DNA of 64,000 nucleotides from Eledone cirrhosa. Taxonomy: Eukaryota. Positions 11,591-45,679 of the stretch are shown piece by piece. The position numbers and the translations under genes were made by a program. Each line of letters opens with the position of its first letter. Position 1 is the stretch's first letter. The notes below the pieces were generated by a model. The model was not told the origin of the DNA and ran no database searches. It worked only from the letters and a program-made list of their open reading frames with translations. The stretch lies in assembly GCA_964016885.1 (NCBI GenBank), contig OZ024742.1, positions 330,708,001 through 330,772,000 of the forward strand. The letters are read 5' to 3'.

Positions 11591-11711
11591 ATAGGAACAA
11601 GTAAGACCCCCTTGGGGTCTTACTTGTTCCTATTACCCACTCTACTACCCTAAGTATTGAGTACTTTGGTGCGTTATGGTCCACCTGGTTCCTTACCACA
11701 TTTCCTCCGTT
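11591..11711 (+). mobile_element. Miniature asymmetric palindrome: 20-bp perfect hairpin plus 78-nt tail
   Basis: ATAGGAACAAGTAAGACCCC-CTT-GGGGTCTTACTTGTTCCTAT, then a tail containing TTGAGTAC. (AT)n on both sides. Confidence 0.7.
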
Positions 11712-12028
11712 ATATATATATATATATATATATATATATATATATATATATATAGAAGTATGTACACGTACATACATATATGTATACAGACGTACAGTAG
11801 TATGTATATATATACACATACATGCACATGCATATATATATGTAGGTATGGATTCACCGAACATTTATTATAATGCTTGGCGTGTTTGTAAACAAACATC
11901 CCGTATTAAGCCGTAGCGTCTAGCAACCATCGTTGCTCGTTTGTTCAACACTGACTAAAGAATTGGGCTACTCAGCCGTTAATATGCATAAGGTAAGTAT
12001 ATACATTCAACAATCTGGTAGTAGGTAT

Positions 12029-12071
12029 ACGTTGCTGACGATAGCTCATAAGCTTGAAACTAGTACAGCGT
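12029..12071 (+). ncRNA. Type I hammerhead ribozyme (family C, unit 1)
   Basis: ACGUUG-CUGACGA-U-AGCU(CAUA)AGCU-U-GAA-ACUAGU-A-CAGCGU. Confidence 0.8.
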
Positions 12072-12546
12072 TCCTTTGTCAGTGTTGAACAAACGAGCAA
12101 CGATGGTTGCTATACACTTCTGCTTAATACCGGATGTTTGTTTACAAACACACTGAGCATTATAATAAATGTTCGGTGAATCCATACGTACATATATATA
12201 AGTGTACATATATGTATATATTTATACATGCTACTGTACGTCTGTATACATATATGAATGTTCGGTAAATTCATACGTACATATATATTTATGTGTGTGC
12301 ATGTATGTATATATATATATATATACATACTACTGTACGTCTGTATACATATATGTTTGTACGTGTACGTACTTATATTTAAGTAACAGCCGTACTAAGA
12401 GTGGGAAATGAAATTTCGTTTCATTTTCTCCGTTTAACGTTTTCGGTGCACCCGGCCGATTAACCCACTCGGTATGCAAATTGGGCTACTCAGCCGTTAA
12501 TATGCATAAGGTAAGTATATACGTTCAACAATCCGGCAGGAAGGTG

Positions 12547-12589
12547 ACGTTGCTGACGATAGCTAAGAAGCTTGAAACTAGTACATCGT
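12547..12589 (+). ncRNA. Type I hammerhead ribozyme (family C, unit 2)
   Basis: Same fold with loop II AAGA and one stem I mismatch. Confidence 0.75.
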
Positions 12590-12970
12590 CCCTTTGTCAG
12601 TGTTTAACAATCGAGCAACGATGGTTGCTAGACACTACGGCTTATTACGGGATGTTTGTTTGTTTACAAACACACCAAGCATTATAATAGATGTTCGGTG
12701 AACCCATACGTACATATATATATGTGTGCATGTATGTATATATATATACATACTACTGTACGGCTGTATACATATATGTATGTACGTGTACATACTTATA
12801 TTTAAGTAACAGCCCTATTAAGAGTGGGAAATGAAATTTCGTTTCCTTTTCTCCGTTTATCGTTTTCGGTGCAGCCGGCCGATTAACCCAGTCGATATGC
12901 AAATTGGGCTACTCAACCGTTAATATGCATAAGGTAAGTATATACGTTCAACAATCTGGCAGAAAGGTAT

Positions 12971-13013
12971 ATGTTGCTGACGATAGCTAATGAGCTTTAA
13001 ACTAGTACAGCGT
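12971..13013 (+). ncRNA. Hammerhead (family C, unit 3), probably inactive (G12U)
   Basis: Same fold with loop II AAUG, but GAAA reads UAAA. Confidence 0.65.
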
Positions 13014-13452
13014 TCATTTGTCAGTGTTGAACAAACGAGCAACGATGGTTGCTAGACACTACAGCTTAATACGGGATGTTTGTTTACAAACACACCGAGC
13101 ATTATAATAAATGTTCGGTGAATGCATACGTACACATATATATGTGTGCATGTATGTATATATATACACACTACTGTATGTCTGTATACATATATGTATG
13201 TACGTGCGTGTACATACTTATATTTAAATAACAGCCGTACTAAATGGGAAATGAAATTAAGTTTCATTTTCTCCGTTTATATATATATATATATATATAT
13301 ATATATATATATATATATATATATATATATATATACATATATATATAATGCATGTTTATACATGTATATATACATGCTTGTTTGTGTGTATTTATTTATA
13401 CATATATATGTATGTATCTCTCTCCCTGTATATAAATATATATATATATATA

Positions 13453-13664
13453 TTAGTTTTAATATAGATGAGATTCTACAGGACTAGAACTGTTTCATTC
13501 TTTAGAAATCATCAGGAAAATCCTGATGATTCCTTATGATTTCTAAAGAATGAAACATTTGTAGTCCTATAGAATCTTATCTATATTAATACTTTTATAC
13601 TCTGCAATGTATTGAGTACCTTACTTACTGTGGTTACCTTCGATTCAACCCGGAATAACGTACC
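13453..13664. mobile_element. Asymmetric palindromic insert with partial HHR
   Basis: Arms about 13453-13512 and 13536-13593. Minus arm reads CUGAUGA-U-UUC(UAAA)GAA-U-GAAAC. Tail carries TTGAGTAC at 13612. Confidence 0.7.
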
Positions 13665-42904: not shown

Positions 42905-43420
42905 TCTGGTCGCTCTCGAGTGCTACTGGTAACAAGTAACCCAGTACAATCTGTCTCATGGTCGGGGCGTCGGCGACTAAACCGCCAACCCCACCAAGCT
43001 TGCTTGATGAGGAAGGTGATATTTGGACACACTGCGGTATGGAATACAATGCCCAGCGATAGGTGGAGTCAGTCAGCAGAGTCAACGGACATCCAAATAG
43101 TACTTTTTTCACATGGGAAGGAAAGGCCCACAGTTGTTGCGACGACACTTTTCTAAGAGAGTGAAACTCTGAAAAACACCTGCGGCTTCAGAAGCATCGG
43201 ATGATGTTGAATAGTTCTCTTTTCGGGCAGTGTTTTCGATGCTCAGAGAGTGGGACGGGTCGAGTGCAAGGCCTTTCCCGACTTAAAACCTTCAGAAGCA
43301 CAGGCATTGTTTGTTAAAGATATGTTAGAGGTTCAGGTGGCTGGCCGTAGCCTAAGGTTGCACCATTTTCTGTAATCTTACAAGCGATAGCAATACTCTT
43401 ATCAGAGTTTGCAGCCACCA
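42905..43420 (+). mobile_element. Dispersed repeat of about 515 bp (unclassified; second copy 50373-50893 inverted)
   Basis: TGCTACTGGTAACAAGTAACCCAGTA..TGTCTCATG and GTGTTTTCGATGCTCAGAGAGTG are shared in reverse complement with 50373-50893. Both copies are bounded by microsatellites. Confidence 0.8.
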
Positions 43421-43466
43421 TATATACATATATAACATATATATATATATATATATATATAACATA

Positions 43467-44230
43467 TACGATATTAAATAAATGGAAACTATATTTATAA
43501 AACCATATTTATTTCATTATATATATTTCAGGGATATCATATTAACAATATGTTATGCCTTCTTCAGACAAAATACAATATAGACAGTTTTATAGATAAA
43601 TAGATTTGACATACCGTTCAACATCGACTTGTATTTGAAAAAGTTGATTTGGCAGTGAAAAATTGTAAACAGAAAGAAAGAAAGAAAGAAAGAAGGAAAG
43701 AAAGAGAGAAAACGAAGAAAAAGAAGAAAAAGAAGAAATGCATGCAACAAAATAGAGAGATGGAAAGATAGATAAAGAGAAGAACTTCATGTAAAGAAAC
43801 AGAGAGAGATATATAGAGAGAGGAAATAGATAGAGATAGATATATATAGATATATATATTTTGTTGCATGCATTTCTTCTTTTTCTTCTTTTTCTTCGTT
43901 TTCTCTCTTTCTTTCCTTCTTTATTTTTTTCTTTCTTTCTGTTTACAATTTTTCACTGCCAAATCAACTTTTTCAAATACAAGTCGATGTTGAACGGTAT
44001 GTCAAATCTATTTATCTATAAAACTGTCTATATTGTATTTTGTCTGAAGAAGGCATAACATATTGTTAATATGATATCCCTGAAATATATATAATGAAAT
44101 AAATATGGTTTTATAAATATAGTTTCCATTTATTTAATATCGTAAATATACTCCAAATACTTGTTGAGTGCTTTTATATCAGTTATAAATATTTACTAGT
44201 TGTAACCCAACAATTTAAATATAACTTTCC
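43467..44230. mobile_element. Asymmetric palindromic insert: about 288-bp arms 43467-43754 and 43857-44144, 86-nt tail
   Basis: Near-perfect inverted repeat (mirror ORFs in the track). HHR-like CUGAAGA-AGG...CCU-GAAAUAUA at about 44044-44090. TTGAGTGC at 44164. Confidence 0.9.
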
Positions 44231-44459
44231 ATATATAACATATATATATATATATATATATATATAACATATATATATATATATATATACATATATAATA
44301 TATATATATATATATATAACATATATATATATATATATATAACATATATATATATATATATATATATGACATATATATATAACATATATATCTATATATA
44401 TATATATAACATATATATATATGTATATATATATATATATATATATATATAAAATAAAT

Positions 44460-44642
44460 AATTGTTTCTACTTTTGGCACAAGGCCATCAATTACTCAGT
44501 GCATTACTGGTACTTTATTTTATCGACCCCGTAAGGATGAAAGGCAAAGTTACCCTCGACGGGATTTGAACTCAGACCCTAAAGGGACGTAACTATGCTG
44601 GAAAGCATGGCATCCGACTCTCTACTGATACTGCCAATCCAC
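44460..44642 (-). mobile_element. tRNA-derived SINE (family S1)
   Basis: Reverse complement of 51651-51835. Confidence 0.9.
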
Positions 44643-44645
44643 AAA

Positions 44646-45333
44646 TGAAATAATATTTCGCTTCAAGCATAGCTTTATATAATATGTATAGAAATTTCTT
44701 ATTTCTAAAGAAATACGGATTTAGGAAGCCGTAGCGATACAATCACCGGGGCTAACGTCCTCTGGTTGTGTCCAGCGGAAGAAAGGGGGACAACCGTCTA
44801 TGCATTTCAGGCTTGACTGCCCTTCGTCGGGATGGTCCCTCCCACCTCTTGCTACTTCTGGACTTGAAAACAGTAGAGAATATGTAGTTTTCTCGCCAGT
44901 CAAGTCTGAATTGCATAGACGGTTGTCCCCCTTGCTTCTGCTGGACACCACCAGAGGGTTAGCCCCGGTGTTTGCATAACTACGGCTTCATAAAACCGTA
45001 TTTCTTTAGAAATACGAAATGTCTATACATATTGTATAAAGATATGCTTGAAGTGAAATCTGTTTCCATTACTATTATAAGTTGAGCCAACTTATGCAGC
45101 TTCATATGCAAATGCGATTAAACACCTCATTTAGAAAACTATATATTCTCGACTGTTTTCCAGCAGTAGCAAGCGGTGGTAGGGACCATCCCGATGAAGG
45201 CCTGTCATGCATGAATTTTATAGACGGTTGTCCCCCTCGCTTCTGCTGGACACCACCAGATGGTGTTAACCCCGGTGTTTGCATCGCTACGGCTTCATAA
45301 AAGCGTATTTCTTTAGAAATACGACATTTCTAT
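44646..45333. mobile_element. Family B, second locus: minus arm 44646-44897, plus arm 44898-45333 (about 1.4 units, period about 305)
   Basis: Clear similarity to 11053-11541. HHR at 44793-44836 (minus, core CCGACGA) and a degenerate HHR at 45185-45228. Confidence 0.85.
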
Positions 45334-45377
45334 AAACACACACACACATATATATATATGTATATATATATATATAT

Positions 45378-45679
45378 ATATCACATAAGAGACGGAGAAT
45401 CAGTGTTGCGACGAATAAATTTGTTTAGACATGGAAACTCTGCTTCGTAGAATCGAGACGTATCTGAGGACCTTGCGATTTCAGAGTCAGATTCGATCAT
45501 TATATCGACCGTGCCTCGAGCTGTTCGCCAGAGTAACGATTGTAATATGTCTAATAAATGTTATTCGTCGCAACACTGATTGTTCGTCTCTTATGTAATA
45601 TCATAGTCTGCTCTATAAGAGCATCGAGTACTCAAACGGCCTACCGCTTACGGGCACTTTAAGCATCCAACACCAATTA
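45378..45679. mobile_element. Asymmetric palindromic insert: about 55-bp arms 45378-45432 and 45547-45601, 78-nt tail
   Basis: ACATAAGAGACG..ATCAGTGTTGCGACGAATAA is inverted at 45555-45597. TCGAGTAC at 45624. Flanked by (AT)n. Confidence 0.75.

Follow-up and report, generated by a model that had tools for sequence, protein, structure and literature searches.

Results

Inverted elements flanked by (TA)n

The window, by which we mean the whole 64,000-nt stretch of Eledone cirrhosa DNA analysed here, contains ten families of asymmetric palindromes or inverted stubs, some with an unpaired tail at one end. These repeats were found by self-BLAST after masking, as (AT)n overwhelmed the repeat finders applied to unmasked sequence. 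In E1–E5 and family F, (TA)n lies on both flanks. The palindromes are most likely 5'-truncated Penelope-like element (PLE) insertions in (TA)n, belonging to the Hydra clade; because E2–E5 have no ORF, we infer their clade. E1–E5 are single asymmetric palindromes, not tandem, and hold no coding sequence, and only family C is tandem in the manner of a retrozyme. Several tails, 61–95 nt long, bear a hairpin laid out as an RC[T/A]C foot, a variable inner stem, a 2-nt bulge and G[A/T]GY. The features are as follows.

2314..2408, minus: tail of family F, absent from the first-pass annotation; tail-less partners end at 922, ~3603 and ~19668
2360..2406, minus: hairpin 1 of family F, GCTC/GAGC variant, inner part of 35 nt; the foot follows the arm end by 2 nt, the motif stands at +42 and (TA)n comes 46 nt later
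2464..2565, plus: Hydra-type PLE endonuclease, C-terminus, within the element of family F; CxxC-E ... N ... CxH, HMM iE 1.3e-9
3534..3557, plus: hammerhead-like core of family F, one core base changed; second copy at 853-876
5588..5608, minus: hairpin 1 in a family D copy homologous to E4; its foot contains one G-U wobble, and folding does not favour the proposed register
6741..7061, minus: E1 asymmetric palindrome; degenerate hairpin at ~6775-6796, foot 5 nt past the arm end, seen by eye and failing the descriptor
11594..11710, plus: E2 asymmetric palindrome in (TA)n; arms 17-20 bp, tail-less end site 11633, tailed end 11710
11639..11664, plus: E2 bulged hairpin 1; opens 5 nt past the arm end with its foot at 11639-11642 and closes with the motif at 11657-11664, the inner stem being 4 bp and the bulge TT; (TA)n follows 46 nt beyond the motif
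13455..13664, plus: E3 asymmetric palindrome; hammerhead core 13523-13555, inverted core 13493-13515
13599..13619, plus: E3 bulged hairpin 1; measured from arm end 13593 the foot is 5 nt on, or 9 nt by the strict walk, and (TA)n follows at 45 nt
13847..13863, minus: short GCTC/GAGC hairpin, 12 nt from (AT)n; partner arm absent
14536..14963, minus: broken Hydra-type PLE reverse transcriptase fragment; HMM iE 1.8e-10
43462..44230, plus: E4 (family D) asymmetric palindrome; hammerhead core 44044-44085
44150..44171, plus: E4 bulged hairpin 1; the arm end precedes the foot by 5 nt, with (AT)n 59 nt away
45382..45677, plus: E5 asymmetric palindrome; arms 50 bp
45605..45631, plus: E5 bulged hairpin 1; 6-bp inner stem, 46 nt to (TA)n; foot 45605 chosen by hand with one mismatch, 3 nt past the arm end (nearest exact foot 45610, 8 nt past)
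50124..50222, plus: decayed PLE end, by eye; hammerhead core 50124-50148, TA patch 50189-50197, decayed hairpin 50206-50222
60751..60770, minus: candidate for a decayed hairpin, failing to fold; a short TA run lies 33 nt away

Hammerhead cores with stem II (type I) are present in E3, E4, F (with one change), E6, B and C, whereas E2 is too short and E5 and E1 retain decayed traces seen by eye only. An Rfam scan did not list the window hammerheads; across the whole window it gave no gathering-level match, and the 150 of 180 matches listed included only sub-threshold, microRNA-like ones.

PLE coding sequence in the window consists of the endonuclease (EN) C-terminus inside family F and the reverse transcriptase (RT) fragment. 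The latter lies 700 nt upstream of the short hairpin at 13847..13863, and any link between the two would be hypothetical. Pfam gave no match on the PLE fragments or their homologues, nor did a word search with the 59-aa EN fragment or a PDB sequence search with the Hydra profile. In Craig et al. (2021, PMC8557442), the Hydra clade comprises EN+ PLEs whose C-terminal GIY-YIG domain has CxxC and CxH around E and N. Family F has this arrangement. Of the other features of that clade, the window elements share the canonical hammerhead, insertion into (TA)n, the inversion of truncated copies and the optional tail; RWK, DKT and CxCX5C were found in alignments A2/A5 and the loci spanning them, in regions that the window does not contain.

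TYGAGTRC is one strand of a bulged hairpin

The first-pass annotation had described TYGAGTRC as a motif fixed about 20–24 nt past the short-arm end in unrelated families. Exact matches do stand at 11657, 13612, 44164 and 45624, starting +24, +19, +20 and +23 from the arm ends given there (+17 at 44164 if the BLAST arm end 44147 is used), and thus in 4 of 10 tails, counting one tail per family. Across the window there are 12 matches against 4.86 ± 2.19 expected, and at least 12 occurred in 1 of 100 shuffles. A post-hoc search for the best shared degenerate 8-mer (6-nt window, 10 tails) returned TYGAGTRC, with four tails reached in 0 of 300 shuffled tail sets. The families show no detectable relation: the segments after the motif are without pairwise homology (10 pairs, all p>0.18), as are the arms (45 pairs), where the lowest p, 0.01, belongs to E6/B, both without the motif. 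The tails thus show no sign of being homologous copies of one family.

Other sites cited alongside these held up less well. The match at 5588-5595 is a homologue of 44164 (76% over 204 nt) and so is not an independent case. The supposed junction site at 50156 sits at the 3' edge of the decayed hammerhead, ~30 nt upstream of its element's TA patch, and not downstream of an arm end; minus-strand 60751-60758 is a one-mismatch decayed candidate. Looser versions had been assigned to families C and B. The former, AAGAGTGG, occurs in 2 of 3 family C units only, the latter reads TTGAAG-N-G and lacks the conserved foot, and both were rejected as members; their tails fail the hairpin descriptor. Of two tails said to lack the motif, that at 17821 has none and that at 6741 has a degenerate copy (foot 6796, 3' half one base short, by eye). 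Elsewhere, the exact match at 45628 is a palindromic overlap of 45624, those at 39038, 42916 and 43260 sit inside other retrotransposons, and no foot was seen at 21168 or 57584. One family F copy, 19535-19602, has lost the motif through a deletion. We also rejected the motif as a hammerhead stem III or cleavage site (it lies 56–84 nt past the core in E3, E4 and the loci described below, with only 50156 at the ribozyme) and a helical-turn periodicity of tail lengths, for which a clear pattern was absent.

A fixed ruler of 20–24 nt was likewise discarded: family F carries a GAGC variant at +42, so the distance from arm end to motif is not fixed, and the inner length ranges from 5 to 35 nt. TYGAGTRC is only the 3' strand of a covarying bulged hairpin and not a linear signal. 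The lower stem is a conserved 4 bp, the 2-nt bulge lies on the 3' side and the upper stem is free in sequence and length. Inner pairs 1–3 are paired in 48/54 cells against 32.2 on permutation, and with relatives dropped and the automatic E5 foot, Watson-Crick pairs make up 33/39 against 18.8 permuted (p 5e-5). These counts exclude the degenerate E1, and the permutation test on the 54 cells excludes rows with an inner part below 9 nt (4 of 22). Only the 2-nt bulge register fits, with 32/36 Watson-Crick pairs against 3–14 when slid. In the lower stem, pair 1 swaps A-T for G-C and pair 3 shows a double change from T-A to A-T in two protein-selected loci (L001, L004); outer pairs 3 and 4 guided the choice of foot, which makes their pairing partly circular. 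Covariation from the window rows alone was not significant (14/15 against 11.4, p 0.10), and descriptor matches were not enriched window-wide (7 against 3.4 ± 1.8, maximum 8). MAFFT failed to align hairpins of such variable length and RNAalifold on its alignment returned no structure; we therefore scored covariation by script, without a covariance model. Four of ten window tails (E6, G, B and C) lack the hairpin, though E6, B and C have hammerheads.

As folded RNA the hairpins are weak, with tail folding z-scores from 0.17 to -2.0; in full-tail folds E2 adopts another register and E5 forms the inner stem only. Antisense strands fold equally well or better in most cases, as might be expected if the signal were read in DNA, with the GIY-YIG domain recognising a terminal repeat or a cDNA hairpin and cutting at a set distance while resolving an intermediate. 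Such ruler-like cutting is known from I-TevI. The tail is ascribed to EN-mediated resolution in PMC8557442 (there 30–40 bp, against our hairpin tails of 61–95 nt), and the D. virilis tail is cited in PMC11167929 as needed for EN recognition. The 5–35 nt between the halves and the covarying inner part nevertheless argue against a duplex DNA site, and the ends show TA microhomology, as expected for priming. Wobbles lean towards the sense strand as well (G-U in 6 cells, A-C in 1), a 6:1 bias that is not significant. We regard recognition in DNA as quite improbable.

The hairpin recurs in protein-selected loci

A held-out set of 14 loci was chosen by Hydra-type protein alone, with the prediction fixed beforehand. 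The Hydra-type endonuclease CxxC-E is present in 11/14 and LNxRxE..CxH in 8/14. Ten of the 14 reach the hammerhead; L002 and L012–L014 end before it and are left out of the counts (L002 has one inverted hammerhead core, 3 nt from the contig end). The strict hairpin descriptor is matched within 150 nt in 6 of the 10 (P ~9e-13 from shuffles), and motif plus foot in 7. In two others, (AT)n closes the copy 41 nt (L009) and 57 nt (L010) past the core, short of the hairpin position at 70–84 nt. Across the loci there are 20 descriptor matches against 3.9 ± 2.0. The 3' copy of L001 has no hairpin.

The signal was seen in Hydra-type elements only. Chance, or a homologous remnant of one family without present function, could be suspected, given a motif chosen post hoc, small numbers and modest window-wide enrichment, but the corrected post-hoc test, the absent flanking homology, the held-out loci and the compensatory changes all speak against it. 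The protein-selected loci largely refute this explanation, which we consider extremely improbable. Of the original proposal, what stands, in the window and in independent loci, is a cis signal at a set offset from PLE ends; the linear 8-mer and its 20–24 nt ruler do not.

Two hairpins mark two element ends

Four read-through copies (L001, L004, L007 and L008) have two hairpins ahead of the ATG, 63–69 nt apart, and two are visible by eye at the 5' end of the published Hydra-1_Ajap. Ends without a tail fall 2–6 nt short of hairpin 1, and tailed ends fall 4 nt short of hairpin 2; the tail is thus the interval between these two stops. The distance from the last shared base to the foot is 2–6 nt in 16 of 19 junctions, the remainder measuring 9, 13 and 13 nt by the strict rule. 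The hairpin 2 site rests on two junctions, in L004 and L007 (4 nt each), and hairpin 2 is seen in no window family. Hence the fixed offset is that of 2–6 nt from end to hairpin foot, not one of 20–24 nt to the motif. The hairpin covaries and is present twice, and 2–6 nt in front of each foot copies end at a TA-rich patch.

All 4 read-through copies place hairpin 2 directly ahead of the ATG, and leader hairpins lie 8–27 nt before the first ATG. Together with the element 5' ends at hairpin 1, this would suit hairpins that serve transcription or translation as a 5' leader, with ends set only by TA patches that adjoin them by chance. Yet each family offers 16–59 AT patches within ~60 nt, the used patch lies 2–6 nt before the foot in 9/10 families and the offset is equal at both hairpins. 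Only 4–19% of candidate AT patches fall in the 2–6 nt interval (~7e-5 jointly for four held-out families, a product taken by hand), so AT patches alone do not explain the ends, and we find a pure leader role very improbable. In E3 no AT patch lies in the 2–6 nt interval.

The same geometry would arise if an RNase of the host, or the element's own protein, were guided by the hairpin to cut the RNA a few nt ahead of the foot, with RT starting at the new RNA 3' end; element ends would then map to cuts and not to internal priming sites. Some copies begin inside the hairpin 1 foot (L007 at +1, L011 at +3 and, by eye, L005 and window 19600) and the published Hydra-1_Ajap begins 2 nt before it, starts that would fit a processed RNA 5' end near site 1. 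Such 5' stops could also reflect transcription starting at hairpin 1 or a protein roadblock there, and the Poseidon-clade PAc initiates internally, with extra 3' RNA leaving the product unchanged (PMC11167929). An RNA cut thus seems unlikely, and from the sequences compared here we infer that what the signal positions may be RT priming, as opposed to a cut in RNA or a nick in DNA.

Discussion

We propose, as the probable explanation, that each hairpin serves as a binding site for the RT-endonuclease, with priming immediately on its 5' side, and that the presence of two hairpins explains the optional tail. On the element RNA the two bulged hairpins lie between the hammerhead and the ATG. The RT/GIY-YIG protein would bind one of them and nick (TA)n, and the nicked DNA 3' end would pair with the TA patch just 5' of the hairpin, where cDNA synthesis would begin; the bound hairpin would therefore not be copied. 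Priming at hairpin 1 would leave a tail-less end, and priming at hairpin 2 a tailed one that includes a copy of hairpin 1. If both target strands were primed, one per site, the inverted cDNAs, once joined, would form an asymmetric palindrome, its tail spanning the stretch from one start site to the other. In four window families (TA)n lies 45–46 nt beyond the motif, a distance that would correspond to the spacing to an uncopied hairpin 2.

A possible, more tentative extension is that the hairpins are docking sites for two RT-endonuclease subunits, each nicking one (TA)n strand and priming 2–6 nt upstream of its own hairpin. A homodimer model of P0012 residues 1–260, run without an alignment, scored 0.10 against a mark of 0.32 and so speaks neither for nor against this. 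If true, such docking would explain the PLE tail, the inverted repeats and the choice of start site on an end-less (circular or multimeric) RNA.

The closest biochemical precedent differs in its details. As described by Frangieh et al. (2024, PMC11167929), PAc (Poseidon, Anolis) uses in vitro two internal RT starts that bound the tail, cleaves AT-rich targets, extends both strands, has a stem-loop at the start region and is predicted to form a dimer; the two starts were mapped, and the text consulted defines no conserved signal. PAc belongs to another clade and initiates inside a single AC-rich stem-loop situated in the ORF, whereas the present elements have two repeated leader hairpins with ends just 5' of each. 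The GCTC/GAGC bulged pair was not seen in the letters of Fig. S1 of the available PMC11167929 text, in which letter order is unreliable. In the portion of PMC8557442 at hand a hairpin downstream of the hammerhead is not described, and yet it is visible by eye in the accompanying consensus file. Animal non-LTR retrozymes (PMC7229834; bioRxiv 10.64898/2026.07.22.740005) are non-coding, with type I hammerheads, and derive from PLE terminal repeats, as here; they are tandem arrays, unlike the single palindromes E1–E5, and no such hairpin appears in the parts of those two papers available to us. Family C, the tandem one in the window, also lacks the hairpin. The hairpin pair was not found in the literature searched.

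Short stem-bulge-stem structures that recruit a replication protein include HBV epsilon, HIV TAR and LINE 3' stem-loops, and TAR is repeated at both RNA ends. We imply no sequence relation, and here, in contrast, the target DNA would prime upstream of the hairpin.

PLEs are the retroelements closest to telomerase. A twice-repeated, covarying hairpin at a fixed offset from both ends is a candidate RNA determinant of the PLE RT start and of the tail. On the more tentative docking model, if true, a hairpin of ~25 nt would act as a portable tag, fixing an internal start for reverse transcription on whatever RNA carries it. The hairpin spans many divergent Hydra-type families, in the window, the 14 held-out loci and published consensuses from several phyla, and it allows ORF-less Hydra-type remnants to be annotated and consensus ends to be delimited.

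Palindrome families and their identity

The window consists of AT-rich DNA from an animal (35% GC); (AT)n arrays are abundant, and it also contains two RT-bearing retrotransposons and one sulfotransferase exon. Self-comparison after masking yields ten microsatellite-bounded families, which are asymmetric palindromes or inverted stubs: the seven listed here, plus B, C and F.

Families found by masked self-comparison
6741-7061: family E1
11594-11710: family E2
13455-13664: family E3
43462-44230: family E4
45382-45677: family E5
17821-18406: family E6
18408-19482: family G

The elements are of an already known kind: inverted truncated copies, an optional tail and (TA)n targets are described for Penelope-like elements (PLEs) in the available text of PMC8557442. 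The arms of E3, E4, F, E6, B and C contain hammerhead cores. Searching with a 55-aa fragment of the window gave seven proteins, six of which resemble PLE RT when judged by eye, and one of these six led to 1412 relatives, 50 of which were used to build a protein profile; the best named homologue of the window PLE fragment is from Argonauta hians. The profile matches an RT at 14536-14872 and an EN C-terminus inside family F (iE 1e-9 to 1e-10), and the Hydra-clade defining motifs, as that text gives them, are present in both the profile and the family F fragment. Families E2-E5 contain no coding sequence and are probably of Hydra type, judging from their target, ribozyme and shared hairpin.

The motif as one strand of a hairpin

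The first-pass annotation placed TYGAGTRC about 20-24 nt past the short-arm endpoint and proposed it as a cis signal that would position the RT/endonuclease and set the internal priming site at a measured distance. Its four core matches are present, starting +24, +19, +20 and +23 nt from the arm ends, and the families that it called unrelated have no pairwise similarity among arms or among post-motif segments. The motif occurs 12 times in the window versus 4.86 ± 2.19 expected. Because it was chosen post hoc, shuffled tail sets were screened for shared 8-mers of any sequence, with two degenerate positions and a 6-nt positional window, and 0/300 sets reached four tails.

TYGAGTRC forms the 3' strand of a hairpin. 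Its complement, RCTC, lies upstream of each motif, with a short stem between them whose sequence differs in every family, and then a 2-nt bulge; we call the 5' strand of the lower stem (RC[T/A]C) the foot. Covariation was counted over 22 context-chosen instances, with partners permuted as control and the E5 foot set by hand. Inner pairs 1-3 are paired in 48/54 cells versus 32.2 permuted; the protein-selected loci described below alone give 32/36 versus 21.0, and the window alone 14/15 versus 11.4 (p 0.10). With the automatic E5 foot and relatives dropped, Watson-Crick pairs fill 33/39 cells against 18.8 permuted, and pairing falls from 32/36 to 3-14 once the partner is slid by 1-3 nt. The lower stem covaries too (ACTC/GAGT, GCTC/GAGC, GCAC/GTGC), but the foot was chosen with the help of pairs 3 and 4. 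The hairpins have little thermodynamic stability, and folding by itself neither singles them out nor fixes the strand; on the sense strand, G-U exceed A-C cells 6 to 1.

Window tails carry the exact motif in 4/10 cases, the hairpin in 5/10 and nothing in 4/10. Of the two tails from which the motif had been reported absent, that of E6 (17821) indeed has none, as does the family G tail, which also has no hairpin copy, but E1 (6741) has a degenerate copy. Several further instances are weaker: site 5588 is a homologue of 44164 rather than a separate case, site 50156 sits at the margin of a decayed hammerhead, on the upstream side of that element's TA patch, and the looser versions in families B and C fail the hairpin descriptor. 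At 60751-60758 a candidate is present but is decayed and does not fold.

Sites beside these
60603-60888: plus-strand hammerhead-bearing end and minus-strand decayed end, with one short TA run in common
57584-57591 (-) and 21168-21175 (+): motif matched exactly but no foot; either chance or unexplained

Published consensuses and protein-selected loci

The hairpin was noted as a prediction, and the six published Hydra consensuses were read by eye in the available part of the PMC8557442 supplement. The full hairpin stands close to the 3' end in Hydra-2_Amil and Hydra-2_Ajap; Hydra-1_Crog shows it with a single mismatch and Hydra-1_Amil weakly, and Hydra-1_Obim and Hydra-1_Ajap stop before its position. 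By eye, none occurs in five Naiad 3' ends there. Five motif variants occur 31 times in that material; among the 30 listed, 26 are outside the Hydra file, and none of these 26 is at a record end.

One profile scan of bacterial genome records selected 14 loci (L001-L014), for which the prediction was noted before they were inspected and which are evidently animal PLE contigs; Hydra-type PLE contigs with (TA)n in such records are apparently host contamination. The hammerhead is reached in 10/14. Among these ten, the strict descriptor matches at ≤150 nt in six (shuffle P about 9e-13), and seven carry the motif together with a foot, in every case 70-84 nt beyond the core; another two run into (AT)n before reaching that position. 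The 3' copy of L001 has no hairpin, though its 5' copy has hairpins. Descriptor matches number 20 in the loci versus 3.9 ± 2.0, and only 7 in the window versus 3.4 ± 1.8. Segment 7900-8050 of L011, near-identical by eye to Hydra-2_Amil, continues 38 nt beyond the motif, suggesting that the published consensus end is short.

Ends lie at a fixed offset from two hairpins

The junction offset was taken from the last base common to ended and read-through copies to the foot. It is 2-6 nt in 16/19 junctions; the other three (9, 13 and 13 nt) are where substitutions halt the walk early. Since the offset is set to the foot, the motif lies further off by the length of the hairpin, at 19-24 nt in the cases first noted and 42 in family F, so the motif is no fixed ruler. 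The cis-signal proposal was right in outline and mistaken about the ruler and about the signal's nature.

Two hairpins precede the ATG, with feet 63-69 nt apart, in read-through copies L001, L004, L007 and L008, and likewise at the 5' end of the Hydra-1_Ajap consensus in the available PMC8557442 supplement. In L004 and L007 the tailed ends fall 4 nt short of hairpin 2, which makes the tail the interval between two equivalent sites, with hairpin 1 inside. Four copies start inside or just past the hairpin-1 foot (measured for L007, at +1, and L011, at +3; judged by eye for L005 and window 19600). The motif end and (TA)n are separated by 46 nt in E2, E5 and F, 45 in E3 and 59 in E4, by 12 and 33 nt at two unpaired window sites, and by 31-40 nt in 7/9 locus ends, with no run found in the other two. 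AT patches are plentiful, but only 4-19% are situated 2-6 nt before a foot; 9/10 families use such a patch, and in E3 the rule finds none.

Mini copy of family F
19535-19668: tail fragment beginning inside the hairpin-1 foot, fused to a short tail-less arm; motif lost through a small deletion

The structure is thus conserved and duplicated, stands at a fixed offset to both kinds of end, and is accompanied by TA microhomology at the ends. We propose, as the probable mechanism, that RT-EN binds to each hairpin and would use nicked (TA)n as the primer on the TA patch immediately 5' of it; two inverted cDNAs, one per site, could then join into an asymmetric palindrome. For a Poseidon-clade element, the available text of PMC11167929 describes reverse transcription that starts internally at two sites, one at each boundary of the tail, along with AT-rich cleavage and extension of both strands. 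Circular or multimeric templates, suggested in the accessible part of PMC4209133, would need internal starts. A hairpin-guided RNA cut is an unlikely origin of the same ends, endonuclease recognition at the DNA level is quite unlikely, and a leader function of the hairpins, with the ends incidental, is very unlikely; genomic junctions do not discriminate among these three. Chance is a most improbable explanation.

No bulged or duplicated hairpin at PLE ends was found described in the literature searched, with subscription papers and Repbase reports outside it, including the available portions of PMC11167929, PMC8557442, bioRxiv 10.64898/2026.07.22.740005, PMC3846280, PMC7229834 and PMC4209133. 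Neither the twin hairpin nor its correspondence to both termini seems to have been described so far, and through them the origin of the PLE tail becomes open to direct testing.

Families without the hairpin and other window contents

Families B, E6 and G (11045-11544, 44644-45334, 17821-18406, 18408-19482) have the same tail architecture and no hairpin; they are probably other PLE clades using a different signal. Family C is retrozyme-like, its tail having a terminal stem-loop (z -2 to -3) and no bulged hairpin.

Family C and remaining features
11757-13277: family C, inverted stub and about three tandem 423-bp units, terminating in (TA)n
12035, 12553: type I hammerhead cores of family C
36692-40483 (+): broken RT retrotransposon (RVT_1), presumably R4/Dong-like, terminating at a (TAA)n run
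40500-41250 (+): second 3' fragment following it, presumably likewise
27100-33100 (-): RT element (RVT_1), which we take to be L1/Tx1-like
42904-43417 (+), 50374-50889 (-): its two related end fragments, adjoining (AC)n/(AT)n junctions; with the element, the source of two of the chance TCGAGTGC matches
22005, 23857, 44456, 51070, 51289, 51648: ~190-bp dispersed SINE-like repeat, 86-93% identical, with no tRNA by ARAGORN
54544-56076 (-): long exon whose end is the beginning of a sulfotransferase domain, presumably heparan sulfate 3-O-sulfotransferase-like
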